From assembly GCF_900199515.1 (NCBI RefSeq), contig NZ_LT963434.1, positions 1,383,272 through 1,415,271 of the forward strand: a DNA stretch of 32,000 bases. The letters are read 5' to 3'. Below the pieces are notes generated by a model. That model saw nothing but the letters and a program-made list of their open reading frames with translations. It searched no databases and was not told where the DNA came from. This document shows positions 841-28,258 of this stretch, one piece after another (within the stretch, counting starts at the first letter, position 1; every line of letters begins with the position of its first letter). The position numbers were made by a program, and so were the translations under genes. The stretch is from Massilicoli timonensis. GTDB taxonomy: Bacteria > Bacillota_I > Bacilli_A > Erysipelotrichales > Erysipelotrichaceae.

Positions 841-1078
841 AATAAAAAAGGCATGTCCATAAAGGGACGATACCTCGTGTTGCCACCCTTCTTAAATATA
901 GAATTTACGCAACATTCTATATTTCACTCGACAGCGATAACGGTACCACCGAAGCAGAATACTGAAATTCCTCTGCTCACTCATGGGTTGATTTCAAGAA
1001 TGATCATAAATGACTTGCACCAGCCGTCATCTCTCTGCTTATAATTACATTCTTTACTTATCCCATTCAACGATTTAT
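841..1078 (-). promoter_or_regulatory. T-box riboswitch leader of serS (Ser specifier)
   Basis: Minus-strand elements are in canonical order. Stem I base is ATGGG/CCCAT with GA motifs, followed by the AGTA S-turn. The AG bulge AGAGA is at 1032-1036 and the distal loop GGTGCAA at 1015-1021. The T-box sequence AAGGGTGGCAACACGAG is at 874-890. The terminator GGTATCGTCC/GGACATGCC plus U6 spans 844-874. Anchoring on the lower helix, the specifier reads UCA (Ser, 989-991) followed by the conserved purine A. Confidence 0.75.
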
Positions 1079-1084
1079 GTGTAT

Positions 1085-3629: not shown

Positions 3630-3644
3630 GTTCTACACCTCCTA

Positions 3645-15651: not shown

Positions 15652-16056
15652 ATGAAAAAAATAATATTGATCTTGACTGTGTTTCTTCTGCTAATAGGCT
15701 GTCAAAAAAAGATGACTTCCAAACAAGTCGTAGAAAATTACTTCAACTATATCAATGAAAAAAATGAAGAAGGATTTAACAATTTATTCGCGGTTCCATT
15801 AAAACCAGAAGATACAGAAACATTGTTCAAAGGAATAAAAGAAATAAAAATAAGAGAAATAAACGTAGTAGAAAAAGACGAACATCTAATGGAAAAAGAG
15901 GAGAAAGAAGATGAAATCACATATTATGTAGACTTTGATCTGATTTATAATGAGAATAATGAAGGCATTACCTATAATGACGGCGGTGATACAAGAAACT
16001 TTTATTTGAAGAAAGTAAAAGGCGAGTGGAAAATCATATCTATTGGATTATTATAA
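15652..16056 (+). CDS. hypothetical lipoprotein
   Basis: 134-aa ORF. The signal peptide carries lipobox LLIGC (MKKIILILTVFLLLIGCQKK). An AGAGAGG RBS lies upstream. The gene is visibly more AT-rich than its neighbours. Confidence 0.7.
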   Translation: MKKIILILTVFLLLIGCQKKMTSKQVVENYFNYINEKNEEGFNNLFAVPLKPEDTETLFKGIKEIKIREINVVEKDEHLMEKEEKEDEITYYVDFDLIYNENNEGITYNDGGDTRNFYLKKVKGEWKIISIGLL

Positions 16057-16068
16057 ATGATAAAACAA

Positions 16069-16139
16069 GAAAGAGACTGTAAGAAACAAACAAGTTCATA
16101 AAGATGAAATTGTTATGAAGTTTTATAGCCTCTTTTTTA
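16069..16139 (+). terminator. terminator module copy B (after the lipoprotein gene)
   Basis: AAGAGACTGTAA...TTATAGCCTCTT is an imperfect long stem followed by TTTTTT. It is roughly three-quarters identical to 15313-15395 by my hand alignment. Confidence 0.6.
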
Positions 16140-16298
16140 TAAAAGCAGATCATTCATACAGAAACAGCATATAAAATGTGATACAATCAAGATAATTGAT
16201 AGAATTTATGTTTCCGCAACCTGAAATTGACAAAAAGAAACAGAAAATTGGTAGTGAGAAAAAGCGGCTTTTATTATAAATAAAGCGAGGTGATGAAA

Positions 16299-17267
16299 AT
16301 GAAATTTAGTGAGAAATTAAAACAATTAAGAAAAGACAAAGGAATGTCACAGGAAGATCTGGCATTTGAACTGAATGTATCAAGACAGGCAGTGTCAAAA
16401 TGGGAGAGCGATAATGCTTATCCGGAAACCGATAAACTGATTCAGATCGGTAAACTGTTTTCTGTTTCGATCGATTATTTGTTGAATGAAGAAACAGATC
16501 ATAATAAGAATGAAGAAATGTTCCCGCAACAATCATTTTATGAAGTCAGTATGGCAGAAATGAAAGATTATTTAACCTTCAAAAAGAAATTTGCGAAGAT
16601 GATCGGTATTGGCGTCATGCTATGTATCCTATCTTTATTGCCGCCTTTGATCAGTACAGAAATGAAGCAAATGCAAAGGATCGCAAATGATGAAATACTG
16701 CTAAAAGATGCGCTTGGTGCAGCCGGTATGTTTTTAATTGTAGCGGTAGGCGTCATTATATTTATCATATATGGAATTAAAAATGCCCAGTTTAATAAAA
16801 AATATGAACAAGAATTAACGATCAAAAAAGAAGATTATCGTTATTTGGAAACAGAGCATCAACAGTTCCATGATCACTTTATCATTGCTATGGCAAGTGG
16901 TGTATTTCTTTGTATCTTTGCATTGATTTCGGCTATTTTAATTGATGCAATCATAGAAAAAGATGTTTATACAGGCGGTTCTTTATTTATATTTGTTGCC
17001 ATTGCCGTATATATCTTCATTTATTTCGGATTACGAGAATCCTCTTACCAGTTCTTTTTAGAACATGAAAAATATCAAAAAGAGAAAGAAAAAGAAAAGA
17101 AAACAGAAGAAATGACCGATCGCTATTTTGAAATCGTTATGCCGATCGTTGGTGTTTTATACTGTGGCTTTGGTTTATGGACCGGTATCTGGCATCCATC
17201 TTGGATCGTTTTCCCACTTACGGCTGTAATCATACTGGCTTATGCAGCTATAAAAAATAAGCAATAG
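16299..17267 (+). CDS. XRE-family HTH regulator fused to a polytopic membrane domain
   Basis: The N-terminus MKFSEKLKQLRKDKGMSQEDLAFELNVSRQAVSKWESDNAYP is a Cro/C1-type HTH. About 6 hydrophobic segments follow. I prefer ATG 16299, 6 nt after GAGGTG; the ORF track begins at GTG 16290. Confidence 0.8.
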   Translation: MKFSEKLKQLRKDKGMSQEDLAFELNVSRQAVSKWESDNAYPETDKLIQIGKLFSVSIDYLLNEETDHNKNEEMFPQQSFYEVSMAEMKDYLTFKKKFAKMIGIGVMLCILSLLPPLISTEMKQMQRIANDEILLKDALGAAGMFLIVAVGVIIFIIYGIKNAQFNKKYEQELTIKKEDYRYLETEHQQFHDHFIIAMASGVFLCIFALISAILIDAIIEKDVYTGGSLFIFVAIAVYIFIYFGLRESSYQFFLEHEKYQKEKEKEKKTEEMTDRYFEIVMPIVGVLYCGFGLWTGIWHPSWIVFPLTAVIILAYAAIKNKQ

Positions 17268-17366
17268 AGAACAGACAAACCTTTCCTTCATAGCCATGCA
17301 ATAATCTGATTTGGCAATAAAAAAGATCAAAATGCTGAAAATGTTTCAAAAATTATTGAAAAACTA

Positions 17367-17395
17367 TTGAAAGTAAGAGATAAAAGTATTAGAAT
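17367..17395 (+). promoter_or_regulatory. sigma-A-type promoter of the aro leader/operon
   Basis: TTGAAA (17367-17372), a 17-nt spacer, then TAGAAT (17390-17395). Confidence 0.55.
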
Positions 17396-17416
17396 AAACG
17401 CATAGGAGTGATGACC

Positions 17417-17461
17417 ATGCAGAAATTCTCACAATTCTTTTACTTTTATTTTGAATCGTAG
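17417..17461 (+). CDS. putative aromatic-codon-rich leader peptide MQKFSQFFYFYFES
   Basis: AGGAG (17404-17408) lies 8 nt before ATG 17417. Of 14 codons, 7 are Phe/Tyr, six of them consecutive (17435-17452). The stop is TAG at 17459-17461. An in-frame ATG at 17411 is too close to the RBS. Confidence 0.6.
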   Translation: MQKFSQFFYFYFES

Positions 17462-17510
17462 TCGAGAAACCATAAATAGCATGGTTATTTTTGATTTTTC
17501 GATACAGACA

Positions 17511-17548
17511 AAGCACAAACGAGAAACAGAAGTTGTGCTTTTTTTATT
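17511..17548 (+). terminator. intrinsic terminator (attenuator) between the leader ORF and aroB
   Basis: Perfect 8-bp stem AAGCACAA/TTGTGCTT (17511-17518 / 17533-17540) followed by TTTTTATT. It ends 7 nt before the aroB RBS. Confidence 0.7.
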
Positions 17549-17565
17549 AGAAAAGGAGGATGCGT

Positions 17566-18561
17566 ATGAAAATACCGGTCATGATCCCAAATCATGAGTA
17601 TGATATTATATTAGAGCGAGGAGCGCTTGCCCACTTAGCAGATTATGTAAAAATACAGGGAAAGGTACTGCTGATCACTGATACAGGAGTACCGCAGGCG
17701 CATATCGAGCTTGTATCAGCACAGCTTGCGGATTGCGATTGCTATATCGTAGAACAGGGAGAAGGCAGCAAATCTTTTACGGTATTGCAAAAAATTTTGT
17801 CTTATATGCTTGCACATGATTTTCAGCGCAGCGATTGTGTGATTGCACTGGGAGGTGGTGTAGTCGGCGATTTAGCAGGTTTTGCCGCAAGTATTTACAT
17901 GCGCGGGATCCGCTTTATCAATTTTCCGACGACGACTTTGGCACAGATCGACAGCAGCATCGGCGGAAAGACCGCAATCAATTTAGATGGTGTGAAAAAT
18001 GTGATCGGTGCGTTTTATCAGCCCTCCTTGGTCATCATTGATCCGGAAGTATTAAAAACACTGGATCATCGACAGATCGTCAGCGGCTTGGCAGAGGCAT
18101 TAAAAGCAGGGTTGATTGCCGATGCAAAATTATTCGCTTTGTTTTCACGAGCAGATCCGATGGAAGAAATCGAAACGATCATTTATCGCTCTTTATTAGT
18201 TAAAAAGCATATCGTTGAACAAGATGAAAAAGAAACCGGGCTGCGAAAATTATTAAATTTCGGACATACGATCGGACATGGCATGGAAGCCTGTTATCTG
18301 GATTCCCTTTATCATGGTGAAGCGGTGGCGCTGGGTATGCTTTATTTTATTGAAAATGAAAGTTTGAAAGAACAAGTCATCAAGATTTATGAGAAACTGG
18401 GATTACCGTGTACATGTGATTATGAAAAAGAAGCGGTATTTACACATATCGCACATGATAAAAAAGCATCGGAGCATACGATTGACGTCGTAGTGGTAAG
18501 CGATGCAGGGAAAAGTCATATAGAAAAGATGTCTTTTGATGAGATCAAAGCCTGTTTATAG
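17566..18561 (+). CDS. aroB: 3-dehydroquinate synthase
   Basis: Motifs GGGVVGDLAGFAASIYMRGIRFINFPTTTLAQIDSSIGGKTAINL and LNFGHTIGHGME. I prefer ATG 17566, 6 nt after GGAGG; the ORF track begins at 17560, abutting the RBS. Confidence 0.93.
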   Translation: MKIPVMIPNHEYDIILERGALAHLADYVKIQGKVLLITDTGVPQAHIELVSAQLADCDCYIVEQGEGSKSFTVLQKILSYMLAHDFQRSDCVIALGGGVVGDLAGFAASIYMRGIRFINFPTTTLAQIDSSIGGKTAINLDGVKNVIGAFYQPSLVIIDPEVLKTLDHRQIVSGLAEALKAGLIADAKLFALFSRADPMEEIETIIYRSLLVKKHIVEQDEKETGLRKLLNFGHTIGHGMEACYLDSLYHGEAVALGMLYFIENESLKEQVIKIYEKLGLPCTCDYEKEAVFTHIAHDKKASEHTIDVVVVSDAGKSHIEKMSFDEIKACL

Positions 18562-18572
18562 GAGAATACAAT

Positions 18573-19709
18573 ATGAAAAATACGTTTGGAAGCAATATTC
18601 AGTACACCCTGTTTGGAGAAAGCCATGGTGAAGCAATCGGTATCGTGATTGACGGATTGCCGGCGGGGATCGCATTAGATCTTGATTTAATGGAAAGACA
18701 GATGGAAAAGCGCAAAGCGAAAGGGAAAATTTCGACACAGCGAAAAGAAGCAGATCAAGTAAAGATCATCAGCGGTTATTTCAACGGTCATACAAGCGGA
18801 ACACCTTTGACGATCCTGATTGAAAATACAAATGTCAAATCACAGGATTATGCGCGAACCCAGATGCTGCTGCGGCCATCGCATGCAGATTACAGCGCAC
18901 ATGTAAAATATCGCGGTTTTGAAGATTATCGCGGCGGCGGACATTTCAGCGGACGATTGACCGCACCGATCGTTGCGGCCGGCAGCATTGCCATGCAAAT
19001 CTTACAACAGTTGGGCGTACAGATCGCAACACATATTGAAAAGCTGCATGATTTAGAAGATGTGCGCTTTGGACAAACGATCGAAGAAGTGGAAACGCAG
19101 ATTGCTTATTTGCAAGATCGCTCATTTCCGACATTAGATGAAACATGTGGAAAAGCAATGATAGAAAAGATCGAAGCCTGTGCAAAACAAAAAGACAGCG
19201 TTGGCGGAATATTGGAAAGTGCAGCGATCCATGTGCCGGCGGGACTAGGCGAACCGTTTTTTGATTCGATCGAGAGCATTCTTGCACATCTGCTGTTTTC
19301 GATACCGGCGGTAAAAGGCGTATCCTTCGGCAGTGGATTTGACTTTGCGAATTTGTATGGGAGTGAAGCGAATGATGCCTTTGCATTAAAAGAAGGAAAG
19401 ATCGTGACCAAAAGCAATCATAATGGCGGAATCAACGGCGGGATCACCAATGGTATGCCAATTCATCTGCATACGGTGATCAAAGCAACCCCATCTATTT
19501 ACCAAGAGCAGGACAGCGTTGATCTGCAAAGCGGAAAAGAAGCAAAACTGACGATCAAAGGCAGACATGATCCGGCTATTTTACACCGGGCGGCGGTCGT
19601 CGTAGACAGTATGATCGCCATTGGCCTATTAGAAGCACTTTGTCAGCAAGAAGCAGGTATGGCGTTGATCAAACAAATGAGCAGTAACGAAAGAGGAATG
19701 ATAGTATGA
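18573..19709 (+). CDS. aroC: chorismate synthase
   Basis: 378-aa ORF. N-terminus reads FGSNIQYTLFGESHGEAIGIVIDGLPAG, with RPSHADY and GRHDP motifs. GGAG lies 8 nt upstream. Confidence 0.95.
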   Translation: MKNTFGSNIQYTLFGESHGEAIGIVIDGLPAGIALDLDLMERQMEKRKAKGKISTQRKEADQVKIISGYFNGHTSGTPLTILIENTNVKSQDYARTQMLLRPSHADYSAHVKYRGFEDYRGGGHFSGRLTAPIVAAGSIAMQILQQLGVQIATHIEKLHDLEDVRFGQTIEEVETQIAYLQDRSFPTLDETCGKAMIEKIEACAKQKDSVGGILESAAIHVPAGLGEPFFDSIESILAHLLFSIPAVKGVSFGSGFDFANLYGSEANDAFALKEGKIVTKSNHNGGINGGITNGMPIHLHTVIKATPSIYQEQDSVDLQSGKEAKLTIKGRHDPAILHRAAVVVDSMIAIGLLEALCQQEAGMALIKQMSSNERGMIV

Positions 19710-20722
19710 TTATTACAATGAAGAAAACGGCAACACAAAAAGATCTCGATTCCATCATTTCTATGATCGAATCAAAAGGATTACATGTCAATATGATTTC
19801 CGGTACAAGTTACAATGTATTCGGTGTAGTCGGTGATACGACGATTTTGGATATGAAGACCATTGAAGCAAATAACAAGGTTGAAAGCGTCATGCGTGTA
19901 TCTGAGCCGTATAAGAAAGTAAACCGGTTATTTCATCCGGAAGATACGATCGTAGATGTAAATGGTATCAAGATCGGCGGAAAAGAGAAGATCGTCGTAA
20001 TCGGCGGACCTTGTTCAGTCGAGGGACAGGAACAAATATCCCGCATTGCCAAAGAAGTAAAAGAAGCGGGAGCGGATATGCTAAGAGGAGGCGCTTATAA
20101 GCCGCGTACTTCCCCATATGCGTTTCAGGGATTAGGTTTTGCAGGCATCATGAATTTGGAACAGGCAAAGAAAGAAACCGGTATGCCGATCGTCAGTGAA
20201 ATCATGAGCGTAGATAAAATTGATGAATTTGTGGAGCATGTGGATATTTTGCAGGTTGGCGCCCGCAATATGCAGAATTTCGATCTGTTAAAAGCACTTG
20301 GTAAAACCAATAAGCCGATCTTGCTGAAGCGCGGACTTTCCAACACGATCGAAGAATGGCTGATGTCGGCAGAATATATCATGGCAGGTGGTAATCCGAA
20401 TGTGATCTTATGTGAACGCGGTATTCGCACCTTTGAAAAATATACGCGCAACACATTAGATCTCAGCGTCATTCCGATCATTAAAAAGAAAACACATCTG
20501 CCGATCATCATCGATCCATCCCATGCGACAGGCGATTGGGAACTGGTGGAAGCAATGAGCTTAGCAGCGATCGCGGCGGGTGCAGATGGTTTGATCATTG
20601 AAGTGCATGACCATCCGGAGTGTGCGTGGAGCGATGGGGCACAGTCATTAAAACCAAAACGCTTCAAAGAACTGATCGAAAAAGGGCGTGTGATCGCCAA
20701 TGTTGTAGGACGCAGCATGTAG
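19706..20722 (+). CDS. aroF: 3-deoxy-7-phosphoheptulonate (DAHP) synthase, type I-beta with N-terminal regulatory domain (copy 1)
   Basis: 338-aa ORF. Core motifs are GGPCSVEG, KPRTSPYAFQGLG and IIDPSHATG. An extra N-terminal domain of about 75 aa is present. The ATG overlaps the aroC stop (ATGA). Confidence 0.92.
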   Translation: MIITMKKTATQKDLDSIISMIESKGLHVNMISGTSYNVFGVVGDTTILDMKTIEANNKVESVMRVSEPYKKVNRLFHPEDTIVDVNGIKIGGKEKIVVIGGPCSVEGQEQISRIAKEVKEAGADMLRGGAYKPRTSPYAFQGLGFAGIMNLEQAKKETGMPIVSEIMSVDKIDEFVEHVDILQVGARNMQNFDLLKALGKTNKPILLKRGLSNTIEEWLMSAEYIMAGGNPNVILCERGIRTFEKYTRNTLDLSVIPIIKKKTHLPIIIDPSHATGDWELVEAMSLAAIAAGADGLIIEVHDHPECAWSDGAQSLKPKRFKELIEKGRVIANVVGRSM

Positions 20723-20732
20723 GAGGAATTTT

Positions 20733-21752
20733 ATGATCATAACCGTAAAGGCGAATATTCCCGAAAAAGAACTGGAACGAATCAAAAGACAGTTTGAAGA
20801 ACAGGGCTTTCAAATCAATGACAGCTGTGGCGCCAATTATCATATATTGGGACTGATCGGAGATACGACCACATTAGATGAAAAATCGATCTTAGCAGAT
20901 CCTTATATTTCACAAGTTACGCGTATCGCCGTTCCTTATAAACAGGCCAGCAGGCAATTTCATCCGGAAGATACGATCGTAGATGTAAATGGTATCAAGA
21001 TCGGCGGAAAAGAGAAGATCGTCATAATCGGCGGACCTTGTTCAGTCGAGGGACAGGAACAAATATCCCGCATTGCCAAGGAAGTAAAAGAAGCGGGAGC
21101 GGATATGTTAAGAGGAGGCGCTTATAAGCCGCGTACTTCCCCATATGCGTTTCAGGGATTAGGTTTTGCAGGCATCATGAATTTAGAACAGGCAAAAAAA
21201 GAAACCGGTATGCCGATCGTATCAGAACTGATGGACAGCGAACAGTTGGAGGAATTTGTCGAACATGTGGATATCATTCAGATTGGCGCCCGCAATATGC
21301 AAAACTTTTCTTTATTGAAAGCGGTCGGAAAGACGAAAAAACCGGTACTGTTAAAAAGAGGGCTGGCAAATACGATCGAAGAGTGGATCATGTCGGCAGA
21401 ATATATTTTGGCGCAGGGCAACCCCAATGTCATCTTGTGCGAACGCGGCATTCGCACCTTTGAAAAATATACGCGCAACACATTAGATCTCAGCGTCATT
21501 CCGATCATCAAAGAAAAAACACATCTGCCGATCATCATTGATCCATCGCATGCGACCGGCGATTGGAAACTGGTAGAAGCGATGAGCTTGGCGGCAGTTG
21601 TGGCAGGCGCAGATGGTTTGATGATTGAAGTGCATGACCATCCGGAATGTGCATGGAGCGACGGTGCGCAAAGCGTAAAGCCAAAACGCTTCAAAGAGAT
21701 CATTGAAAAATGTCGAAAAGCAGCAAAGATCGTCGAAAGGGAATTAGGATGA
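20733..21752 (+). CDS. aroF: DAHP synthase, type I-beta with divergent N-terminal regulatory domain (copy 2)
   Basis: 339-aa ORF. By my count the catalytic core is about 90% identical to copy 1 and the N-terminal 75 aa about 39% identical. AGGAGG lies 6 nt upstream. Confidence 0.92.
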   Translation: MIITVKANIPEKELERIKRQFEEQGFQINDSCGANYHILGLIGDTTTLDEKSILADPYISQVTRIAVPYKQASRQFHPEDTIVDVNGIKIGGKEKIVIIGGPCSVEGQEQISRIAKEVKEAGADMLRGGAYKPRTSPYAFQGLGFAGIMNLEQAKKETGMPIVSELMDSEQLEEFVEHVDIIQIGARNMQNFSLLKAVGKTKKPVLLKRGLANTIEEWIMSAEYILAQGNPNVILCERGIRTFEKYTRNTLDLSVIPIIKEKTHLPIIIDPSHATGDWKLVEAMSLAAVVAGADGLMIEVHDHPECAWSDGAQSVKPKRFKEIIEKCRKAAKIVERELG

Positions 21753-23023
21753 AAGCAATCGTATATCCTTGCACTCCTTTCGGCACCTGTGTCATTCCGC
21801 CAAGTAAATCACTCAGCCATCGTGCGATCATCGCCGCCGCTTTGGCGTCCGGCACCAGTATCATTGAAAATATATCTTATTCAAAGGATATTTTGGCTAC
21901 CATTGAAGCGATACGAACGATCGGGGCGAAGATCACAGAATCAGGAACGACTTTGACGATTCAAGGGATTGGGACGTTGCAAGATCTGCCGCAGAAGATG
22001 ATCGACTGCAATGAATCCGGCTCGACGCTGCGCTTTTTGATTCCCTTATTTGCACTGTCTGAACAAAGCATGATCTTTACCGGAAAAGGGCGATTGTTGG
22101 AACGTCCGCAAAGTGTTTATCAAGAGTTGTTTGCGAAACAAGGGCTGACATTTTTACAAAATAAAGAACAGATCGTCGTGCGGGGACCTTTACAGGCAGG
22201 CGATTATGTACTGGAAGGAAATATCAGCTCACAGTTTATCAGCGGATTATTGTTTGCATTGCCGCTGCTTCCCGCTGCTTCCTCAATTACCGTAAAAGAA
22301 CCGTTTGAATCCGCTTCTTATGTGGAATTGACGATCGATGTTCTAAAACGATTCGGCATTGAGATCATGCGAGAAAGTCACAATCGCTTTATGATCAAAG
22401 GAAATCAACAGTATCAAGCGGCGCATGATCGGGTGGAAAGTGATTATTCACAGGCTGCGTTTTTTGCGGTGTTAGGAGCGTTACATAAGGGAATCACTTT
22501 ATCAAATCTCTCAGTCACCTCGAAGCAAGGAGATCAGGCAATCTTAGCGATATTGGAAAAAAGCGGAATCATCATTGATCAAACGAAGGAAAATGTCGTG
22601 ATTCACGGTGGTGAAGTACAGGGAAGTGAAATTGATTTAGCCGACTGTCCGGATCTTGGACCGATCTTAATGGTACTGGGCGCATTTGCCAAAGGTATGA
22701 CGCATATTTATCATGCCAAACGGCTGCGCTATAAAGAAAGTGATCGAATCGCGGCAATGGAAACAGAACTAAAAAAATTAGGTGTGGAAATTTCCAGCAG
22801 TGAAGATGAGATCTGGATAAAGGGAAGTCCTGCTTATCAAGGCGGCGTTGCACTCGAGGCGCATAATGATCATCGCATCGTCATGAGTTTAGCAGTTGCG
22901 ACGACGCTTTGTAAGAAGCCTTGTGTCATTATCGGGGCGCAGGCAATTTCTAAATCTTATCCGCATTTCTTTGCTGATCTGGAACGCATCCGAGGAAAGG
23001 TCGTGCTGCAGGATGAAAATTAA
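21749..23023 (+). CDS. aroA: 3-phosphoshikimate 1-carboxyvinyltransferase (EPSP synthase)
   Basis: I prefer ATG 21749 (MKAIVYPCTPFGTCVIPPSKSLSHRAII...), which overlaps the aroF' stop (ATGA). The ORF-track start at 21710 lies inside aroF'. Motifs are NESGSTLRFLIPL and DHRIVMSLAVA. Confidence 0.92.
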   Translation: MKAIVYPCTPFGTCVIPPSKSLSHRAIIAAALASGTSIIENISYSKDILATIEAIRTIGAKITESGTTLTIQGIGTLQDLPQKMIDCNESGSTLRFLIPLFALSEQSMIFTGKGRLLERPQSVYQELFAKQGLTFLQNKEQIVVRGPLQAGDYVLEGNISSQFISGLLFALPLLPAASSITVKEPFESASYVELTIDVLKRFGIEIMRESHNRFMIKGNQQYQAAHDRVESDYSQAAFFAVLGALHKGITLSNLSVTSKQGDQAILAILEKSGIIIDQTKENVVIHGGEVQGSEIDLADCPDLGPILMVLGAFAKGMTHIYHAKRLRYKESDRIAAMETELKKLGVEISSSEDEIWIKGSPAYQGGVALEAHNDHRIVMSLAVATTLCKKPCVIIGAQAISKSYPHFFADLERIRGKVVLQDEN

Positions 23024-23897
23024 ACAGGATACCCGGTTTTTGATCATCGGCTTAGGTTTGATCGGCGGCAGTTATGCAATGGGATTAAGCAAAGCGGGCT
23101 ATTCGGTCTTTGCGATCGATCAAGAGCAGGAAGCGATCGACTACGCTTTAGAAAAACAGATGATCGTAAAAGGAGCATGCACAGATGATGAAGGTACGGT
23201 AATCGCTTTGATCAAACAGGCGGACTGCATCTTATTTGGACTTTATCCAAGTGCGATCCTTCCCTGGATCAGCCGATATCAGCAATATATCAAAAGCGGT
23301 GCGCTGCTGAGCGATGTCAGCGGAGTAAAAGCGGCGATCGTCCCTTCTATTCAAGCGGCGCTGCGAAATGATCTGGAATTTATCGGTGCACATCCGATGG
23401 CGGGTAAAGAAGTATCGTCAAATCGATTCAGTGATCCTTCTATTTTCAAGATCGCCAATTTCATTATTACACCAACAGAAAAAAACAGTAGCGCTGCCAT
23501 TGCTTTTATGAAAGAATTTGCGCATCTTTTAGGATTTCATCATACAGCGATATTATCCTTGCAGGAGCATGACCGCATGATCGGCTTTCTTTCTCAATTG
23601 ACGCATATCATAGCGGTTGCTTTGATGAATACAAGTGATAATACACATCTGGCCGAATATACCGGTGATAGTTTTCGTGATCTAACTAGAATTGCGAAGA
23701 TCAATGAACAGCTGTGGAGCGAGTTATTTTTCTTAAATAAGCCGGTGCTTTTGGCAGAGATCGATGCTTTTTCGAAAGCTTTGGCATCACTTAGAAAGGC
23801 ACTGGCCGAAGATGATGAAGAAAAGTTAAAGGAATTGATGCGCTTATCAACGAAGCGCCGTAAAGTATTTGATCAAAAACAGGAGGAACATAATTGA
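23013..23897 (+). CDS. tyrA: prephenate dehydrogenase
   Basis: I prefer ATG 23013 (MKIKQDTRFLIIGLGLIGGSYAMG..., Rossmann GxGxxG); the ORF-track start at 22896 lies inside aroA. The GAHPMAGKE motif is present. It overlaps the aroA end by 11 nt. Confidence 0.88.
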   Translation: MKIKQDTRFLIIGLGLIGGSYAMGLSKAGYSVFAIDQEQEAIDYALEKQMIVKGACTDDEGTVIALIKQADCILFGLYPSAILPWISRYQQYIKSGALLSDVSGVKAAIVPSIQAALRNDLEFIGAHPMAGKEVSSNRFSDPSIFKIANFIITPTEKNSSAAIAFMKEFAHLLGFHHTAILSLQEHDRMIGFLSQLTHIIAVALMNTSDNTHLAEYTGDSFRDLTRIAKINEQLWSELFFLNKPVLLAEIDAFSKALASLRKALAEDDEEKLKELMRLSTKRRKVFDQKQEEHN

Positions 23898-23908
23898 TTC
23901 GTGATCAT

Positions 23909-23931
23909 AAGCAGGCACACGCCTGTTTTTT
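23909..23931 (+). terminator. intrinsic terminator after tyrA
   Basis: CAGGC-ACAC-GCCTG (23912-23925) followed by TTTTTTG. Confidence 0.6.
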
Positions 23932-23966
23932 GATTCTGTGATACAATGATAGAAGAGGTGATGGCG

Positions 23967-24860
23967 ATGATCTTATTTGTCAGCGGCCGCTGTGACATTC
24001 CGGCCTTTTATTCCGAGTGGTTTTTCAATCGGCTAAAGATCGGTTTTGTCGATGTTAGAAATCCATATGATCAGCATCAAATATCGCGTATCCTTTTAGA
24101 TGAGAAGCATATTGACTGCATTGTATTCTGTACCAAAAATCCCCTGCCGTTATTACAGAAACTCGATGCGATTCCATTCCCGTTTTTGGTGCATGTTACA
24201 TTGACACCGTATCATCAGGATATAGAGCCGTTTGTCCCTGATAAAAAACAGATTTTATCCGCAATTCGCACCCTTTCTGAAAAACTGGGAAAAAAACGGG
24301 TAATCGTTCGTTATGATCCGATTTTATTGACGGAACGCTATACGCTTGCTTATCATAAAAAAGCGTTTGCTTCTTTGTGTGAAAAACTAAGCGGCTATGT
24401 GGATACGATCATTATCTCTTTTGTAGATGATTATCGCAATATGCGCAGCCATGCGATCCAAATCAAAATGTACGCACCGAAAGAGGCAGCCTGCCGGGAA
24501 CTGGCAAAGGCATTTTATGACAGTGCCGCAAAGCATCAGATCAGGGTGCAGACGTGTGCGGAAAATATGGATTTGCGGGAATATGGGATCGAAAATCGAC
24601 CTTGTTTTGCGGAAGCAGATCTGAATGATCGCTTACATACGGCAATTTATTTTCAAAAAGGGAAAAGCGTACGGAAAAACTGCAGCTGCCTGCCTACCGT
24701 AGATATTGGCGATTACAATGCCTGTTCCTATCGCTGCCGCTATTGTTATGCCAATTATGATGAATCGAAGATAGCAGAAAATACACATAGGCATGATCCG
24801 AATAGTTCCGTCTTGATCGGACATGTGGAAAAAGAAGATAAAATTACGATCAGAAAATGA
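23967..24860 (+). CDS. DUF1848-like Cys-rich protein (uncharacterised)
   Basis: I prefer ATG 23967, 6 nt after GAGGTG. The N-terminus reads ILFVSGRCDIPAFYSEWFFNRL. The C-terminal cysteine cluster is CSCLPTVDIGDYNACSYRCRYCYAN. The family assignment is from memory of DUF1848 and is not HMM-verified. Confidence 0.6.
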   Translation: MILFVSGRCDIPAFYSEWFFNRLKIGFVDVRNPYDQHQISRILLDEKHIDCIVFCTKNPLPLLQKLDAIPFPFLVHVTLTPYHQDIEPFVPDKKQILSAIRTLSEKLGKKRVIVRYDPILLTERYTLAYHKKAFASLCEKLSGYVDTIIISFVDDYRNMRSHAIQIKMYAPKEAACRELAKAFYDSAAKHQIRVQTCAENMDLREYGIENRPCFAEADLNDRLHTAIYFQKGKSVRKNCSCLPTVDIGDYNACSYRCRYCYANYDESKIAENTHRHDPNSSVLIGHVEKEDKITIRK

Positions 24861-24933
24861 TCATCATATGTGCGTTTTATATGACATAAAGAGAATGCAT
24901 AAAAACGTATAAGATCAACGAGCATACGTTCAT

Positions 24934-24990
24934 AAAAAAAGACTTTGTCGCAAGCGATCAAAAGATCAGGCTGCGAAAAGTCTTTTTCTT
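24934..24990. terminator. bidirectional terminator between the convergent DUF1848 gene and small-peptide gene
   Basis: Long stem AAAGACTTTGTCGCA / TGCGAAAAGTCTTT (24938-24952 / 24972-24985), flanked by an A-run on the left and a T-run on the right. Confidence 0.7.
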
Positions 24991-25032
24991 TATCTGCATG
25001 ATGAAATACTACTTCACAAAGGCAGTACCTTT

Positions 25033-25170
25033 CTAGGAAGGGTGTTGTTCCTCAAACTTTTTATTCTTGGAAGCAACATTCCGATAACCTTTTTCCATTT
25101 TCGGAATGCCGATGCAAAGTGCCGCGATGACAACCGCGATGCAGATACATGCAATGATGATGCCCAGCAT
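25033..25170 (-). CDS. unannotated 45-aa single-pass membrane peptide
   Basis: Below the ORF-track cutoff. AAAGGAGG lies 6 nt before ATG 25170. My translation is MLGIIIACICIAVVIAALCIGIPKMEKGYRNVASKNKKFEEQHPS*: one hydrophobic helix followed by a basic tail. Confidence 0.55.
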   Translation of the reverse strand: MLGIIIACICIAVVIAALCIGIPKMEKGYRNVASKNKKFEEQHPS

Positions 25171-25242
25171 AATAAGCCTCCTTTCTTCATTATGATTTGT
25201 TCAGTTATTACAGAAAGATCTGTAAAGGGTATCTCTATTATC

Positions 25243-25270
25243 ATCATAACGCATTTTAACGATACTGCAA
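25243..25270 (-). promoter_or_regulatory. candidate promoter of the small-peptide gene
   Basis: On the minus strand: TTGCAG (25265-25270), a 16-nt spacer, then TATGAT (25243-25248). Confidence 0.35.
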
Positions 25271-25348
25271 GCGCTTTTATGAAAAATCTTAAAGTTTTTT
25301 TATTTTGTCTGTTATAAAAACCTACTAATGAACACAAATCTATACGAT

Positions 25349-25383
25349 AACAAAAAAGGAACCTCATGCAAAGAAGTTCCTTT
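25349..25383 (-). terminator. intrinsic terminator after nrdG
   Basis: Stem AAAGGAAC/GTTCCTTT (25355-25362 / 25376-25383) is followed on the minus strand by TTTGTTAT. It begins 6 nt after the nrdG stop. Confidence 0.7.
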
Positions 25384-25389
25384 TATGGT

Positions 25390-25917
25390 CTATTCATCAA
25401 GATGCTGATTGACCTCATCATAAGCGCTCAAGATCACCTGCTGCTTTGCCAGCGACTGCTGCACATCAATGATCCGCTGATTTTTGGATCCTTTGAAGCG
25501 CAGTCGATAATCTTTTTGTGCTTCAATGAAACGTCCGTCTACCAATACGTCTATATGTTCCAGCAGTGCTTTTTTCTCTTTGTCACACAGCAGTTCCTCA
25601 AATGTATAACCACTGTATGCCCAGACGTTGAGCTTCATTTCCTCTTTCGCAAAGACAGCGATCGGAATCAGCGCCGCGCTTTGATCAAAGGGTTCACCGC
25701 CGGATAAGGTCAGCCCGCTTTGTAAACGGATCTGTTTCATCTCCTCGATGATACGTGTTACATCCACTGATACACCGCCGTTTGGATCGTGTGTCTGAGG
25801 ATTATGACAGTTTGGGCAGTGATGGGGACAGCCTTGTGTCCAAAGCACCATGCGTAAGCCCGGTCCATCAACGATACTGTCTCTTTGCAGATCAGAAGCA
25901 AGCCTTACACTAAGCAT
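25390..25917 (-). CDS. nrdG: anaerobic ribonucleoside-triphosphate reductase activating protein (radical SAM)
   Basis: 175-aa ORF with VDGPGLRMVLWTQGCPHHCPNCHN (CxxxCxxC) and LSGGEP. Its start overlaps the nrdD end by 8 nt. Confidence 0.93.
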   Translation of the reverse strand: MLSVRLASDLQRDSIVDGPGLRMVLWTQGCPHHCPNCHNPQTHDPNGGVSVDVTRIIEEMKQIRLQSGLTLSGGEPFDQSAALIPIAVFAKEEMKLNVWAYSGYTFEELLCDKEKKALLEHIDVLVDGRFIEAQKDYRLRFKGSKNQRIIDVQQSLAKQQVILSAYDEVNQHLDE

Positions 25918-28258
25918 GCTTTACGCGATCTCTTTCTTCAGCCGCCTTGGAATCATTGAAACGGTCAAGTGTACCTACTAAATAGCCGGTAATACGTCTG
26001 ATCTTTTCAAATTTCATTTCGCTCTTGTATTCATCACGGCCGCATTTCGGGCATACATGTCCTTCGATCACTCCGCTGTATCCGCAGACCGGATCACGAT
26101 CCACCGGATGATTGATGCTGCCATAGCCGACGCCGGCTTCTTTCATACATCTTACGATTGCTTCAAATGCTTCCAAGTTGTTGCATGGATCGCCGTCCAC
26201 CTCTACATAGGAAATATGACCGGCATTGGTAAAGGCATGATATGGTGCTTCTCGTTCGATCTTTTCAAAGGCGCCGATGTGATAGTAAACCGGTACATGG
26301 AAGCTGTTGGTATAATATTCACGATCGGTAACGCCCGGAACCACACCGTAAAGTTTTTTATCAATGCGCGTAAAGCGTCCGGATAATCCTTCTGCCGGAG
26401 TGGCGATCAAAGAGAAATTGAGATGATACTGATTCATCGCCTCATCCATGCGATCACGCATATGACCGATGATCTTTAAGCCTAAAGCCTGCGCTTCATC
26501 ACTTTCTCCGTGATGTTTTCCAATCAGCGCTTTCAAGCATTCCGCTAAGCCGATAAAGCCAACGGTAAGAGTACCTTGCTTGATCACTTCTTCTAACGTA
26601 TCATTCCAGTTTAACTTATCAGCGCCGAGCCATACACCCTGTCCCATTAAGAACGGGAAGTTTTTCACTTTCTTTTGTCCCTGGATCGCCATACGCTCTA
26701 ATAACTGCTGAATGACAGAATCGATTTTCTCATCTAATTCCTGGAAGAAACCGGCTTCATCGAATTTACCGTTTAATGCCACACCGTGCTTTAAGCCTAA
26801 ACGCGGAAGGTTAATGGAAGTAAAGGACAAATTGCCTCGTCCGGTTACGATTTCCGGTCCGCAGCAGTTGCTGATCACACGCGTACGGCATCCCATATAA
26901 GTCGCTTCCGTATCCGGATCTCCTTCCTTATAATATTGCAAATTGAACGGTGCATCCAAGAAAGAAAAGTTCGGGAACAAACGCTTTGCGGAAACGCGGC
27001 AGCTTAACTTGAACAAGTCATAGTTTGGATCGCCTTCATTGTAATTGACGCCTTCTTTTACTTTGAAGATCAAGATCGGGAAGATCGGTGTTTCCCCATT
27101 GCCCAGACCTGCTTCCTGTGCTAATAACAGATTTTTCGATACCATACGACCTTCACTGCTGGTATCGGTGCCGAAGTTGATGCTGCTGAAAGGAACCTGT
27201 GCGCCGGCACGAGAGTGCATCGTATTCAAATTATGGATAAAGCCTTCCATTGACTGGAATGTCTTTTTATCAGTGTCTTTCAAAGCATTGCGATAAGCAA
27301 ATTCCTCGATCAGATCCATTTGTTTATTGCCGATATGATAGGTATCGTGCAAGAAAGTACGCTGCTTTTCTAAATATTCCTGTTTCATATCGATTTCCGG
27401 CTGCATGCCCCATGCTTTGATTTGGTTTTCTAAGCTATCCTTCAGATCGATTTCATCATCGACCAGCACTTCCAAAGCACGGCTTAAATTGCGGATATAT
27501 TCGCGTTTGAAGGTTTTGCGTACGCCCGGTGCCAAATAGTAGTCAAAGGATGGAATGCTCTGTCCGCCATGCTGATCATTTTGATCGCTTTGGATCGCAA
27601 TCGCCGCTAATGCCCCATAGCTTAAAATATCCTGCGGTTCACGCAGATGACCGTGTCCTGTTGAGAAACCGCCGTTAAATAATTTATTCAGATCGATCTG
27701 ACAGCAGGTCAAAGTACCCATATTCATAAAGTCCATATCATGAATATGAATGTCGCCGTTTTCGTGCATTTTCGCATGCAGCGGATTCATGACTTCATTC
27801 ATACAGAATTCTTTAGAAATGGCGCTGCCGTATTGCAGCATCGTACCCATTGCGGTATTACCGTCAATATTGGCGTTTTCACGCTTGACATCGCCGTCCT
27901 CACCATCGGCATCCGCATATGTGATCTGTCCGATCGCTTTCATGATGCGGGATTTGGAGTTACGGATTCGAGAACGCTGATCACGATACAAAATGTATGC
28001 CTCTGCGGTTTTCGCATGTCCTTCTTCGATCAGCACTTTAATGACCGCATCCTGAATATCCTCTACATTAGGGGTCGCGTCAAAGTGTGATTCAAGATAA
28101 TGAATGACCTTAGTCGTCAAAAGTTCGGCAGTTGTGTAGTCCGCTTCCTTTCCTTCCTGCGATGCTACGCTGTTGGCTGCTAAATAAATGGCCCGTGTAA
28201 TTTTTTCCGGGGTGAAATGGATTTCGCGTCCATCTCTTTTTTGGATCATCGTAATCAT
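25910..28258 (-). CDS. nrdD: anaerobic (class III) ribonucleoside-triphosphate reductase
   Basis: 782-aa ORF. It has an N-terminal ATP-cone (IQKRDGREIHFTPEKI), the thiyl loop YMGCRTRV, a C-terminal Zn ribbon CGYSG...CPKCG and the glycyl-radical motif RRITGYLV. Confidence 0.96.
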   Translation of the reverse strand: MITMIQKRDGREIHFTPEKITRAIYLAANSVASQEGKEADYTTAELLTTKVIHYLESHFDATPNVEDIQDAVIKVLIEEGHAKTAEAYILYRDQRSRIRNSKSRIMKAIGQITYADADGEDGDVKRENANIDGNTAMGTMLQYGSAISKEFCMNEVMNPLHAKMHENGDIHIHDMDFMNMGTLTCCQIDLNKLFNGGFSTGHGHLREPQDILSYGALAAIAIQSDQNDQHGGQSIPSFDYYLAPGVRKTFKREYIRNLSRALEVLVDDEIDLKDSLENQIKAWGMQPEIDMKQEYLEKQRTFLHDTYHIGNKQMDLIEEFAYRNALKDTDKKTFQSMEGFIHNLNTMHSRAGAQVPFSSINFGTDTSSEGRMVSKNLLLAQEAGLGNGETPIFPILIFKVKEGVNYNEGDPNYDLFKLSCRVSAKRLFPNFSFLDAPFNLQYYKEGDPDTEATYMGCRTRVISNCCGPEIVTGRGNLSFTSINLPRLGLKHGVALNGKFDEAGFFQELDEKIDSVIQQLLERMAIQGQKKVKNFPFLMGQGVWLGADKLNWNDTLEEVIKQGTLTVGFIGLAECLKALIGKHHGESDEAQALGLKIIGHMRDRMDEAMNQYHLNFSLIATPAEGLSGRFTRIDKKLYGVVPGVTDREYYTNSFHVPVYYHIGAFEKIEREAPYHAFTNAGHISYVEVDGDPCNNLEAFEAIVRCMKEAGVGYGSINHPVDRDPVCGYSGVIEGHVCPKCGRDEYKSEMKFEKIRRITGYLVGTLDRFNDSKAAEERDRVKHA

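Follow-up and report, generated by a model that had tools for sequence, protein, structure and literature searches.

A probable Phe/Tyr-sensing leader-peptide attenuator upstream of the aroB operon in Massilicoli timonensis and related Erysipelotrichaceae

An operon for aromatic amino-acid synthesis in Massilicoli timonensis is preceded by a very short reading frame rich in Phe and Tyr codons and by an intrinsic terminator, which raises the question of whether a translating ribosome senses the supply of these amino acids there and, if so, how its position is passed on to RNA polymerase. Amino-acid operons of Bacillota are usually described under T-boxes, TRAP, riboswitches or repressors, and leader-peptide attenuation has been thought awkward in this phylum, as the polymerase outruns the ribosome in B. 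subtilis. The locus has been analysed within a stretch of 32,000 nucleotides (the window), in which the following features have been located:

17367-17395, plus strand: sigma-A-type promoter, with -35 box TTGAAA (17367-17372), 17 nt and -10 box TAGAAT (17390-17395)
17404-17408, plus strand: Shine-Dalgarno sequence (SD) of the leader, AGGAG, inside the conserved GGAGTGAT
17410-17420, plus strand: segment A, GAUGACCAUGC, spanning the start codon and complementary to 17479-17489 in hairpin 1
17417-17461, plus strand: leader ORF of 14 codons, MQKFSQFFYFYFES, and stop codon UAG
17435-17452, plus strand: putative sensor run of six consecutive Phe/Tyr codons, FFYFYF
17461-17503, plus strand: hairpin 1, 43 nt, its base beginning in the stop codon; basal helix of GUCGAGAAA (17461-17469) with UUUUUCGAU (17495-17503), G+C pairs at the very base; apical small hairpin at 17468-17486, AACCAT (17468-17473) with ATGGTT (17481-17486), then ATTTTTGATTTTT
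17487-17499, plus strand: U-rich tract, ATTTTTGATTTTT behind the apical hairpin, conserved as GGTTATTTTTG
17504-17509, plus strand: spacer, short and A/C-rich, from hairpin 1 to the terminator
17510-17548, plus strand: intrinsic terminator, stem AAAGCACAA with UUGUGCUUU, 14-nt loop and U-run
17520-17527, plus strand: second copy of CGAGAAAC, in the terminator loop; a feature of the window, not conserved in the family
17566-23897, plus strand: operon of aroB, aroC, two DAHP synthase genes, aroA and tyrA

A sequence-only reading had described a promoter, AGGAG, ORF, small hairpin and terminator at this place, and all of its coordinates have been found to agree with the sequence of the window. 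Its count of seven Phe/Tyr codons among 14, six of them consecutive, has been confirmed, and Pfam assigns every gene that it had named in the operon, i.e., aroB, aroC, two DAHP synthases of the FXD type (77% mutual identity), aroA and tyrA. The promoter has a 10/12 match and is tied for best among the promoter-like sites of 16000-26000; the pattern TTGnnA-17-TAnnAT, at equal distance to the SD, recurs in 14/14 family members. The transcript would accordingly start at ~17402, leaving the leader SD at the very 5' end of the mRNA. Translation of the window leader would start at ATG 17417, 8 nt past the SD, while the in-frame ATG 17411 is an unlikely start, being just 2 nt from it; the distance from GGAG to the start codon amounts to 12-14 nt in all members. 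For aroB, the SD is GGAGG at 17555-17559, which ATG 17566 suits better than ATG 17560. No second SD-preceded short ORF with at least three consecutive and at least four total aromatic codons has been found on either strand of the window.

Regarding the RNA downstream of the ORF, the small hairpin of the sequence-only reading has turned out to be the apex of the larger hairpin 1, the G+C pairs of whose basal helix fall within the first 3-5 nt past the stop codon. The region 17460-17556 folds at z = -4.35 against dinucleotide shuffles. In the terminator, AAGCACAA (17511-17518) pairs with TTGTGCTT (17533-17540), and TTTTTATT follows to 17548; its energy of -8.2 kcal/mol lies at one end of the family range of -8.2 to -12.3 kcal/mol, and two other terminators of the window have been calculated at -10.3 and -14.3 kcal/mol. 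Its absence from the consensus terminator scan is due to the loop of 14 nt, as the scan permits 3-8. The U-rich tract, together with the two preceding T's, provides a TTNTTT-type motif, TTATTT at 17485-17490, and in most relatives the tract is folded as an unpaired internal loop on the 3' side. The conserved order of the small hairpin and then TTATTTTT fits the TTNTTT motif described for NusG (PMC9226507), and the tract is regarded as a candidate RNA polymerase pause site.

Whether the leader ORF and its aromatic run are kept in relatives had been set by the sequence-only reading as a test of its own proposal. Indeed, ORF, hairpin and terminator have been found before aroB in 14 further contigs of Erysipelotrichaceae type, among them [Clostridium] innocuum, Longicatena and Amedibacillus, whose AroB proteins share 52-69% identity with that of the window. 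Together with the window these make 15 leaders, with 11 distinct peptides from ~7 lineages, in the common order of promoter, SD, ORF, hairpin at the stop codon, spacer, terminator and aroB SD. All of the distinct peptides (11/11) are encoded by an SD-preceded ORF of 10-15 codons with 3-6 consecutive Phe/Tyr codons, and Trp occurs in none of the 11; flanking residues, start codon (ATG or TTG) and stop codon vary. The basal helix of hairpin 1 has been observed to covary, with 7/9 pairs altered on both sides, and the terminator with its U-run is kept in all members, 2/9 pairs showing a compensatory change. The consensus fold contains both hairpin 1 and the terminator. In the model-fitted alignment, 88% of cells pair (80% in shuffles), double-sided changes affect 11 pairs (6.0 +/- 1.3 in shuffles), and 0/500 shuffles reach any of five measures; in slid controls, just 38-63% of cells pair. 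A covariance model scores 13 members at 57-85 bits and finds nothing convincing outside the members in 802 kb, the next match reaching 35.5 bits. Two loci with a pheA-aroB operon (L090 and L091) and most Clostridia loci are without the leader and have been set aside as non-members, and a family-specific DNA pattern gave six matches in JGI metagenomes, all of them unrelated double terminators. Among the Clostridia loci, two further aromatic leader-peptide families, unrelated to the aroB leader, have been observed; these indicate that this mode of control is wider in gut Firmicutes than the catalogues show.

Given the conserved ORF, the covarying hairpin and the conserved terminator, a Phe/Tyr sensor read by the ribosome, as had been proposed at first, appears as the best reading of these sequences. 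The leader is thus probably a Phe/Tyr-sensing transcription attenuator of the aroB-aroC-aroF-aroF'-aroA-tyrA operon. Of the elements by which an attenuator is recognised, an SD with an ORF, a run of cognate codons (the operon makes chorismate and contains tyrA) and a terminator before the first structural gene are all present, while an antiterminator sharing a strand with the terminator has not been found at these leaders.

The spacing of the elements has been well kept. The Phe/Tyr run begins 15-24 nt past the AUG, and in 14/15 leaders its last aromatic codon lies 8-11 nt from the base of hairpin 1. For E. coli ribosomes, the footprint ends at +11 to +16 from the P site; with the offset of 8-11 nt, a ribosome that waits for the last codon has the hairpin base at its mRNA entrance. 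One or two non-aromatic codons separate run and stop in 13/15 leaders, the distance from stop codon to hairpin 1 is -3 to +2 nt (15 leaders), and the spacer between hairpin and terminator measures 4-9 nt in 15/15, with 6 nt in the window. Two other ways of translating the leader have been rejected: a hungry-codon frameshift that would read through the terminator, as the window has an open +1 frame and its relatives do not, and a second ORF from a conserved AUG inside the hairpin (MVIF...), which is without an SD, has variable ends and stops before the spacer in L095, L094 and L092.

Among the leader segments tested family-wide, significant complementarity is confined to three pairs: one half of the hairpin with the other, one terminator arm with the other, and the 3' half of the hairpin with the SD/AUG region. 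For the last, z is -2.3 to -2.6 and the derangement p 0.0005-0.012; in the window, segment A forms a helix of 11 bp at -16.3 kcal/mol, against -7.2 +/- 2.3 in shuffled sequences (p = 0.006). Pairing of the SD/AUG region with hairpin loop and 3' half is found in 9/14 leaders with differing sequences and reaches 11-22 bp in several members, and it is weak or absent in 5/14 (L001, L003, L100, L089 and L092). No leader segment is significantly complementary to a terminator arm other than its partner arm, and significance has been reached neither by the Phe/Tyr codons or the U-tract with the terminator A-tract, nor by loop-loop kissing, the SD with the terminator 3' arm, or any leader segment with the SD/start of aroB. 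Constrained folds have been inspected for five leaders (window, L003, L005, L095 and L098). With the AUG region masked by a ribosome, hairpin 1 is predicted in 4/5; in L098, the hairpin 3' strand pairs with the terminator 5' arm instead. If the ribosome is removed, or placed at the stop codon or on the last aromatic codon, 4/5 take the SD/AUG pairing, L003 being the exception. Whatever the ribosome state, the predicted folds include the terminator, and its 5' arm has found no other partner in these folds even with the 3' arm blocked, apart from the AUG-masked fold of L098. A conserved antiterminator overlapping the terminator has consequently not been detected among the 15 leaders, although the ~7 lineages that they represent leave room for a weak A/U-rich pairing. 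Further candidates have been rejected: the SD/AUG-hairpin helix with the U-tract as a first regulated terminator has a suitable geometry in ~8/12 and lacks its helix in 5/14, and a pseudoknot joining the terminator A-tract to the U-rich internal loop has only 4-7 A-U pairs on offer, while the 4-9 nt spacer would be too short to cross a helix of 9-11 bp.

One may propose the following course of events from these features. RNA polymerase would pause at the U-rich TTATTT behind the apical hairpin, leaving time for the first ribosome to translate the leader. With scarce Phe-tRNA or Tyr-tRNA, this ribosome would be held in the run, the AUG region would be occluded and the full hairpin could form; as the ORF is about as long as one ribosome footprint, a ribosome held at the first aromatic codons would also cover the AUG. 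Under good supply, the ribosome would reach the stop codon and have to melt the G+C-clamped base of the hairpin, the freed 3' half of which may be captured by the vacated SD/AUG region, so that further translation of the leader would be shut off too. The intact hairpin with the parked ribosome would then go along with read-through, and the melted or captured one with termination at 17548. The direction in this proposal, i.e., an intact hairpin meaning read-through, is a tentative assignment that falls somewhat short of an even chance.

No conserved pairing competes with the terminator, and nothing that has been computed explains its suppression by an intact upstream hairpin; to our knowledge, there is no precedent for a non-overlapping hairpin that suppresses the terminator in an amino-acid attenuator. 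A steric link may be imagined, in which, with the ribosome docked and a spacer of 4-9 nt, the folded hairpin leaves the terminator hairpin too little space in the polymerase exit channel; we consider this unlikely. In a broader form, the hairpin at the stop codon would be an antiterminator without a strand shared with the terminator, the RNA being collapsed between ribosome and polymerase, or would modify the polymerase directly, with SD/AUG capture locking the off state. This form is more doubtful still; if true, attenuation would work through geometry and not through competition between helices, in a phylum whose polymerases are held to run ahead of the ribosomes.

The sequence-only reading amounts to classical attenuation with three hairpins, which has precedents in trp, pheA and his. 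There, a stall at the last Phe/Tyr codons opens hairpin 1, the protector (1:2), and the freed U-rich 3' strand pairs with the 5' arm or loop of the terminator as an antiterminator (in the window, UUUGAUUUUUCG with CGAGAAACAGAAG), whereas a ribosome that finishes and leaves fast lets both hairpin 1 and the terminator form. Several features of the leaders suit this explanation. The default without translation would be termination, the basal G+C pairs sit where the leading edge of the ribosome would strike first, and U directly follows the stop codon, a context favouring fast release, in 12/15 leaders. In L001 and L092, one more Tyr codon stands 3-4 nt from the hairpin base, which a stall at this codon would melt, so that the classical model fits these two better; the proposed pairing exists in the window at -6.3 kcal/mol, and its equivalent in L098 reaches -11.6 kcal/mol. 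Across the family, however, the hairpin 3' strand has been found to pair with spacer, terminator 5' arm and loop no better than shuffles do (z = +0.3 to +0.5), cognate pairs perform worse than non-cognate ones (derangement fraction 0.83-0.96), the terminator loop alone gives z about 0 (p = 0.28), and the terminator 5' arm remains partnerless as described above. Moreover, a stall at any aromatic codon of the main run leaves the hairpin essentially intact, and a ribosome at the stop codon melts more of it than a stalled one, which is the wrong sign for the classical scheme unless release is very fast. A 2:3 antiterminator of hairpin 3' half and terminator 5' arm has likewise been rejected (-2 to -8 kcal/mol as hairpins, z about 0). 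The only alternative pairing that had been suggested at first involved the duplicated CGAGAAAC, whose copies at 17463-17470 and 17520-17527 do exist and are both complementary to TTTTTCG (17495-17501), but only the window and its nearest relative have the pairing. It has been discarded as an antiterminator or pseudoknot conserved in the family (z about 0, derangement p = 0.28 against shuffled or non-cognate sequences), and in L094 and L095, whose sequences were read by eye, loop geometry would bar the pseudoknot. Taken with its precedents, classical attenuation is still judged improbable here.

A further explanation leaves the terminator constitutive and leaky and has the leader act on the fate of the mRNA or on its own translation. 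A ribosome stalled ~20-40 nt from the 5' end would shield the read-through mRNA from 5'-dependent decay as with ermC in Bacillota, while transcripts without ribosomes would be silent and exposed owing to the SD/AUG-hairpin helix. Stalled 5'-proximal ribosomes do stabilise mRNA in B. subtilis (induced stabilisation), and the position of the leader SD at the extreme 5' end of the transcript, the lack of an RNA competitor of the terminator and the capture helix of 11-22 bp in several members all agree with such a role. It would leave unexplained, however, why the covarying hairpin keeps its place with respect to the stop codon, why the spacer is short and fixed and why all members have a terminator of ordinary strength, and it is thus highly unlikely. 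That the RNA is read by a protein, a tRNA or a small molecule, with the aromatic ORF incidental or encoding a micropeptide, could draw on an apex of hairpin 1 conserved beyond pairing needs (CCAU...AUGGUUAUUUUUG), where UGGU and its partner ACCA resemble the contact of T-box bulge and tRNA acceptor end, yet it is barely credible, since the region matches neither a T-box nor any other Rfam family, pairing to the start-codon region and a pause signal account for the apical conservation, and SD, start, frame, stop and F/Y run are kept while other codons drift, the signature of selection on translating the F/Y codons.

The preferred reading of a ribosome-read Phe/Tyr sensor gives a well-conserved leader peptide with a NusG-type pause motif to Erysipelotrichaceae that are common in human and animal guts, [Clostridium] innocuum included, and predicts the response of aromatic amino-acid synthesis to supply in these bacteria. 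The leader departs from the textbook scheme in where its sensor codons stand with respect to the hairpin and in lacking an antiterminator that overlaps the terminator, and offers a compact test case. For annotation, the analysis has yielded the covariance model and 15 sequences.

Compared with known systems, the aroB leader is very probably a known kind of switch whose family has not yet been catalogued, as judged from Rfam 15 and, for uORFC-13-1, from its description. In Rfam 15, no family reaches its gathering score at the leader of the window or at the 14 related loci. The T-box model (RF00230) gives no match at 17200-17700 even with E up to 10, and the same search has recovered a genuine T-box elsewhere in the window (860-1079, 138.6 bits). 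Phe_leader (RF01859) scores 15.4 bits (E = 7.7) against a gathering score of 55, and the window leader is hence no member of that family. The pheL-pheA system that this family represents also combines a Phe-rich leader peptide with a following terminator that controls an aromatic biosynthesis gene, but its Phe codons are part of the 5' arm of the 1:2 hairpin, whereas those of the window leader are all upstream of the hairpin. Similarly, the aroR-aroF leader of C. glutamicum encodes a Phe-Tyr-Phe peptide upstream of a DAHP synthase operon, and stalling at its Phe/Tyr codons enhances read-through; it belongs to Actinomycetota, is unrelated in sequence, has been tested experimentally and responds to the availability of Phe and not of Tyr (Neshat et al. 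2014, as summarised in PMC11802643). The vmlR leader of B. subtilis contains a validated NusG pause motif identical to the TTATTT of the window, but senses antibiotic-stalled initiating ribosomes on a uORF of 3 codons and has a predicted antiterminator that overlaps the terminator (PMC9226507).

The first reading had named T-boxes, TRAP or riboswitches as the usual control in Bacillota, which is true, but leader-peptide attenuators had been proposed before for the his operon of the same order (PMC9413887) and, in the related genus Acholeplasma, for aroF (PMC8632094). The candidate uORFC-13-1, described by the Breaker laboratory in 2021 and untested experimentally, precedes aroF in Acholeplasma and environmental sequences and comprises promoter boxes, an RBS, a start codon, a Phe-encoding U-run, one further base-paired substructure and an intrinsic terminator directly downstream (PMC8632094). 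Compared by description only, all elements of this published architecture are present in the window leader as well; both precede genes of the shikimate pathway, and the host lineage is close to Erysipelotrichales. However, uORFC-13-1 stands before aroF itself, whereas in the window the leader is followed by aroB and the two aroF copies come later in the operon, and uORFC-13-1 needs "at least one" Phe codon in place of the 3-6 consecutive Phe/Tyr codons of the aroB leaders. For six species of Erysipelotrichales, candidate attenuators with His leader peptides have been put forward (Ashniev et al. 2022; PMC9413887), which, by description, share the order and the layout of RBS, start, 3-5 cognate codons, stop, an "attenuator hairpin" directly behind the stop and a terminator. 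They differ in their His codons, in the his operon that they precede and in the candidate antiterminators reported for them, as opposed to the aroB leaders with no conserved one. Taken together, the aroB leader and these proposed His attenuators of the same order suggest that the clade routinely uses attenuators read by the ribosome.

As judged from sequence, the leader ORF, hairpin and terminator preceding the aroB operon of the window are well supported as a Phe/Tyr-sensing leader-peptide attenuator, because exactly the features that such a device needs have been found conserved. The elements which the sequence-only reading had placed there have been recovered, and Pfam has borne out its operon content (aroB, aroC, two FXD-type DAHP synthases, aroA and tyrA):

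17367-17395, promoter TTGAAA-17-TAGAAT
17404-17408, leader SD AGGAG
17417-17461, leader ORF MQKFSQFFYFYFES
17463-17470 and 17520-17527, duplicated octamer CGAGAAAC
17468-17473 and 17481-17486, small hairpin AACCAT/ATGGTT
17511-17518 and 17533-17540, terminator AAGCACAA/TTGTGCTT, then a T-run to 17548

No consensus match between 16 and 26 kb outscores the promoter, which is joint-best at 10/12, and the ORF is the single SD-preceded one with an aromatic run on both strands of the window; the terminator has been missed by a consensus scan solely because of its 14-nt loop. Folding has shown the small hairpin to be the apex of a 43-nt hairpin (hairpin 1, 17461-17503) starting in the stop codon, and the folding of hairpin and terminator together far exceeds that of shuffles (z = -4.35). 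A search of Rfam 15 has returned no family at gathering score at the leader site, where the enterobacterial Phe_leader model reaches 15.4 bits under permissive thresholds against a gathering score of 55. Its sole match over the window is an ordinary T-box (860-1079, - strand; 138.6 bits against RF00230) preceding the seryl-tRNA synthetase gene serS (MLDMKVIRENPELVKENIRKKF...), which runs past the window start; with a leader peptide before the aro operon, one genome thus appears to use both controls.

Within the operon, the two tandem DAHP synthase genes with ferredoxin-like domain (19706-20722 and 20733-21752, + strand) are 77% identical overall. Their catalytic cores are near-identical and the divergence lies in the N-terminal regulatory domain, which may reflect different feedback effectors; two copies are also present in the related loci L097, L100 and L101, and one in L001 and L095. 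The DUF1848 gene downstream of tyrA (23946-24860, + strand), past a terminator-like hairpin at 23909-23928, probably lies outside the operon.

By its AroB, the window belongs to an Erysipelotrichaceae-like lineage, the closest public AroB identity being 98%, on a contig whose shortness made it unusable, followed by 69%, 66% and 58% or less. DNA upstream of aroB has been retrieved for AroB relatives, and in 14 further contigs a short ORF with an SD and a Phe/Tyr run lies 105-160 nt upstream of aroB, giving a set of 15 leaders from about seven lineages.

Leader peptides of related loci (L numbers are handles of the loci fetched for comparison)
L002: MHLFSQFYYFYFES
L001: MHKISQFYYYEY
L003, L097: MRKICRHSYYFYFR
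L100, L101: MRKTSCNSYYFYFR (TTG start codon)
L005, L006, L020: MRKNAYFYYYE
L098: MRKMSSFYYYE
L095 (contig with [Clostridium] innocuum AroB): MIQKAYFYYFE
L096 (Longicatena): MHNKGFYYFK
L094: MEHKGFYYYR
L099 (Amedibacillus): MQNKGYYYFS
L089: MKMVRGFYFYD
L092, L093: MRNPAKFYFDDEYAS

The comparison of aroB upstream regions proposed in the sequence-only reading has thus revealed a conserved F/Y run and a covarying hairpin. Conservation of the peptides is limited to the aromatic run, and Trp is absent from every leader of the set. A sigma-A-type promoter stands at a fixed distance in 14/14 leaders, which would put the leader SD right at the 5' end of the mRNA. In L100 and L101, close relatives of L003, TTG replaces ATG with SD spacing unchanged and the peptide otherwise conserved; their leader starts some 155 nt before aroB, which itself starts at 1501. 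In L003 the neighbour of the aro leader promoter, pointing the opposite way, is a purine riboswitch (3609-3710, - strand; 86 bits) that drives a divergent purE-purK operon, so that two different RNA sensors share one intergenic region.

Two elements only, the post-stop hairpin and the terminator, have been found by RNAalifold across 12 leaders. With a covariance model made from the two, 13 members score 57-85 bits, and nothing convincing has appeared in the rest of the window and 96 other loci (next match 35.5 bits). In the model-fitted alignment, which is biased toward the model's structure, the basal helix of the hairpin shows double-sided changes in 7/9 pairs (e.g., UCGAGAAA/UUUUUCGA, CCCGAUA/UAUCGGG, UCCUGUUAG/CUAAUAGGA and UCGUUAUAAAG/CUUUAUAACGA), five of five covariation measures exceed all 500 shuffles, and slid-partner controls are all lower than the real pairing; a MAFFT-based consensus gives the same compensatory changes. 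The terminator stem is mostly invariant (AAAGCAYC/GRUGCUUUU), with energies ordinary for this genome (-8 to -12 kcal/mol) and unusually large loops of 10-16 nt. Inner hairpin 1 (AAAGCCAU...AUGGUUAUUUUU, 17468-17499) resembles the terminator (AAAGCAUC...GAUGCUUUUUU, 17510-17548) in most members, and the hairpin may have originated as a tandem terminator copy that later decayed into a pause-type element. An AUG within the conserved CAUGGUUAUUUUUG of the hairpin (17481-17483, with an equivalent in most relatives) opens a frame MVIF... in many members; a second ORF from it has no SD, stops at widely differing places and fails on conservation, as does a frameshift, and the CCAU/AUGG pairing together with the U-tract probably accounts for the presence of the AUG.

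For alternative pairings, each leader has been divided into eight segments (SD/AUG region; ORF remainder; hairpin 5' half; hairpin 3' half; spacer with terminator 5' arm; terminator loop; terminator 3' arm with U-run; aroB SD/start), and duplex energies of cognate pairs have been set against shuffles as well as every derangement of seven lineage representatives. No more than three pairings stand out, namely the hairpin halves, the terminator arms and, unexpectedly, the SD/AUG region with the hairpin loop and 3' half. This capture helix comprises 11 bp in the window (17410-17420 with 17479-17489, -16.3 kcal/mol) and is built from different sequences in L005 (CAUGCGUA/UACGCAUG plus GGAGGCA/UGCUUCU), L099 (UAUGCAAA/UUUGCAUA) and L094 (AUCAUCAUG/CAUGAUGGU); it is significant in 9/14 leaders and weak in L001, L003, L100, L089 and L092. 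The octamer-based pairing of CGAGAAAC suggested earlier lacks conservation across the family (z about 0, p = 0.28). Nor does the hairpin 3' strand pair with the terminator 5' arm, as in the classical scheme, any better than expected by chance, cognate pairs being worse than non-cognate ones. In ribosome-masked folds of five leaders, masking of the AUG region leaves the hairpin as the predicted structure in four; in the fifth, L098, the hairpin 3' strand is paired to the terminator 5' arm. Where the ribosome sits on the last aromatic codon or on the stop codon, and also where there is none, the capture helix forms in all but L003. The terminator 5' arm is mostly unpaired in all these states, and blocking either terminator arm has yielded no consistent alternative partner.

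Across the leaders, the AUG precedes the first aromatic codon of the run by 15-24 nt, the first paired hairpin base comes 8-11 nt after the last aromatic codon of the run (counted from that codon's first base) in 14/15 leaders, one or two non-aromatic codons separate run and stop in 13/15, and the hairpin start ranges from 3 nt before to 2 nt past the stop codon's end (8 nt before in L092); its G+C pairs are the first 3-5 of the basal helix, and 4-9 nt separate it from the terminator. Counting from the P site, a ribosome is assumed to hold mRNA single-stranded as far as about +11 and to cover it as far as about +15. With these dimensions a ribosome waiting at any run codon would leave the hairpin essentially intact, one at the stop codon would have to melt the G+C clamp, and one at the first aromatic codons would also cover the AUG; in the E. 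coli trp leader such a placement is that of 'region 2', not of 'region 1'. Since geometry and capture helix point that way, we tentatively favour a model in which a hairpin left intact behind the stalled ribosome would give read-through; its link to the terminator is possibly steric, as hairpin, ribosome and terminator stem would be crowded within a few nucleotides. The classical model, in which the stalled ribosome opens the hairpin, is in line with the clamp at the very base of the hairpin, the U following the stop codon in 12/15 leaders and the additional Tyr codons in L001 and L092, but it appears unlikely, given that no antiterminator is conserved and that the last aromatic codon alone would act. 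What likelihood these two models leave falls to stability-type or other mechanisms. The conserved apical hairpin followed by TTATTTTT is a plausible candidate for a synchronising pause; it matches the pause motif whose NusG dependence has been validated in the vmlR leader of B. subtilis (PMC9226507). Should polymerase run ahead of ribosomes here, as it does in B. subtilis (PMC7858274), a pause of this kind would be required.

Two further, unrelated families of aromatic-rich leader ORFs have been encountered. One (MNTMFYYAMRFYYYA... / MKMMYYYSMRFYYTASL; Clostridia and Oscillospiraceae MAGs) precedes an aminotransferase-pheA-aroB operon, with hairpins and a terminator after the ORF, and matches no Rfam family; its terminator 5' arm is directly repeated (GCAGAAUGCC / GCAGAGUGCC), which suggests a classical alternative pairing. 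The other (MFVNKSFYYFYFVKGCPAFVKSEK / MFNNFYFFFFTKGCPSSVMFKK; Eubacteriales and Acutalibacteraceae MAGs) stands before a type-I-alpha-like DAHP synthase gene and has a promoter, a strong SD, a long terminator and, after the run, a conserved KGCP motif.

L013, 1354-1407, + strand, second aromatic leader ORF
L019, 1452-1505, + strand, second aromatic leader ORF
L022, 1305-1376, + strand, second aromatic leader ORF
L023 and L027, 1422-1493, + strand, second aromatic leader ORF
L014, 1672-1746, + strand, third aromatic leader ORF
L008, 2450-2518, + strand, third aromatic leader ORF

Among aromatic genes, E. coli pheA is an established case of leader-peptide attenuation, as is C. glutamicum aroR-aroF (PMC11802643). 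In six Erysipelotrichales species, His leader-peptide attenuators have been proposed whose 'attenuator hairpin' directly follows the stop codon (PMC9413887). The Acholeplasma uORFC-13-1, a candidate Phe uORF upstream of aroF accompanied by one more stem and an adjoining terminator (PMC8632094), may be homologous to the window element. In view of these aromatic, Phe and His precedents, the window element is an uncatalogued leader-peptide attenuator of a kind that is itself already known.
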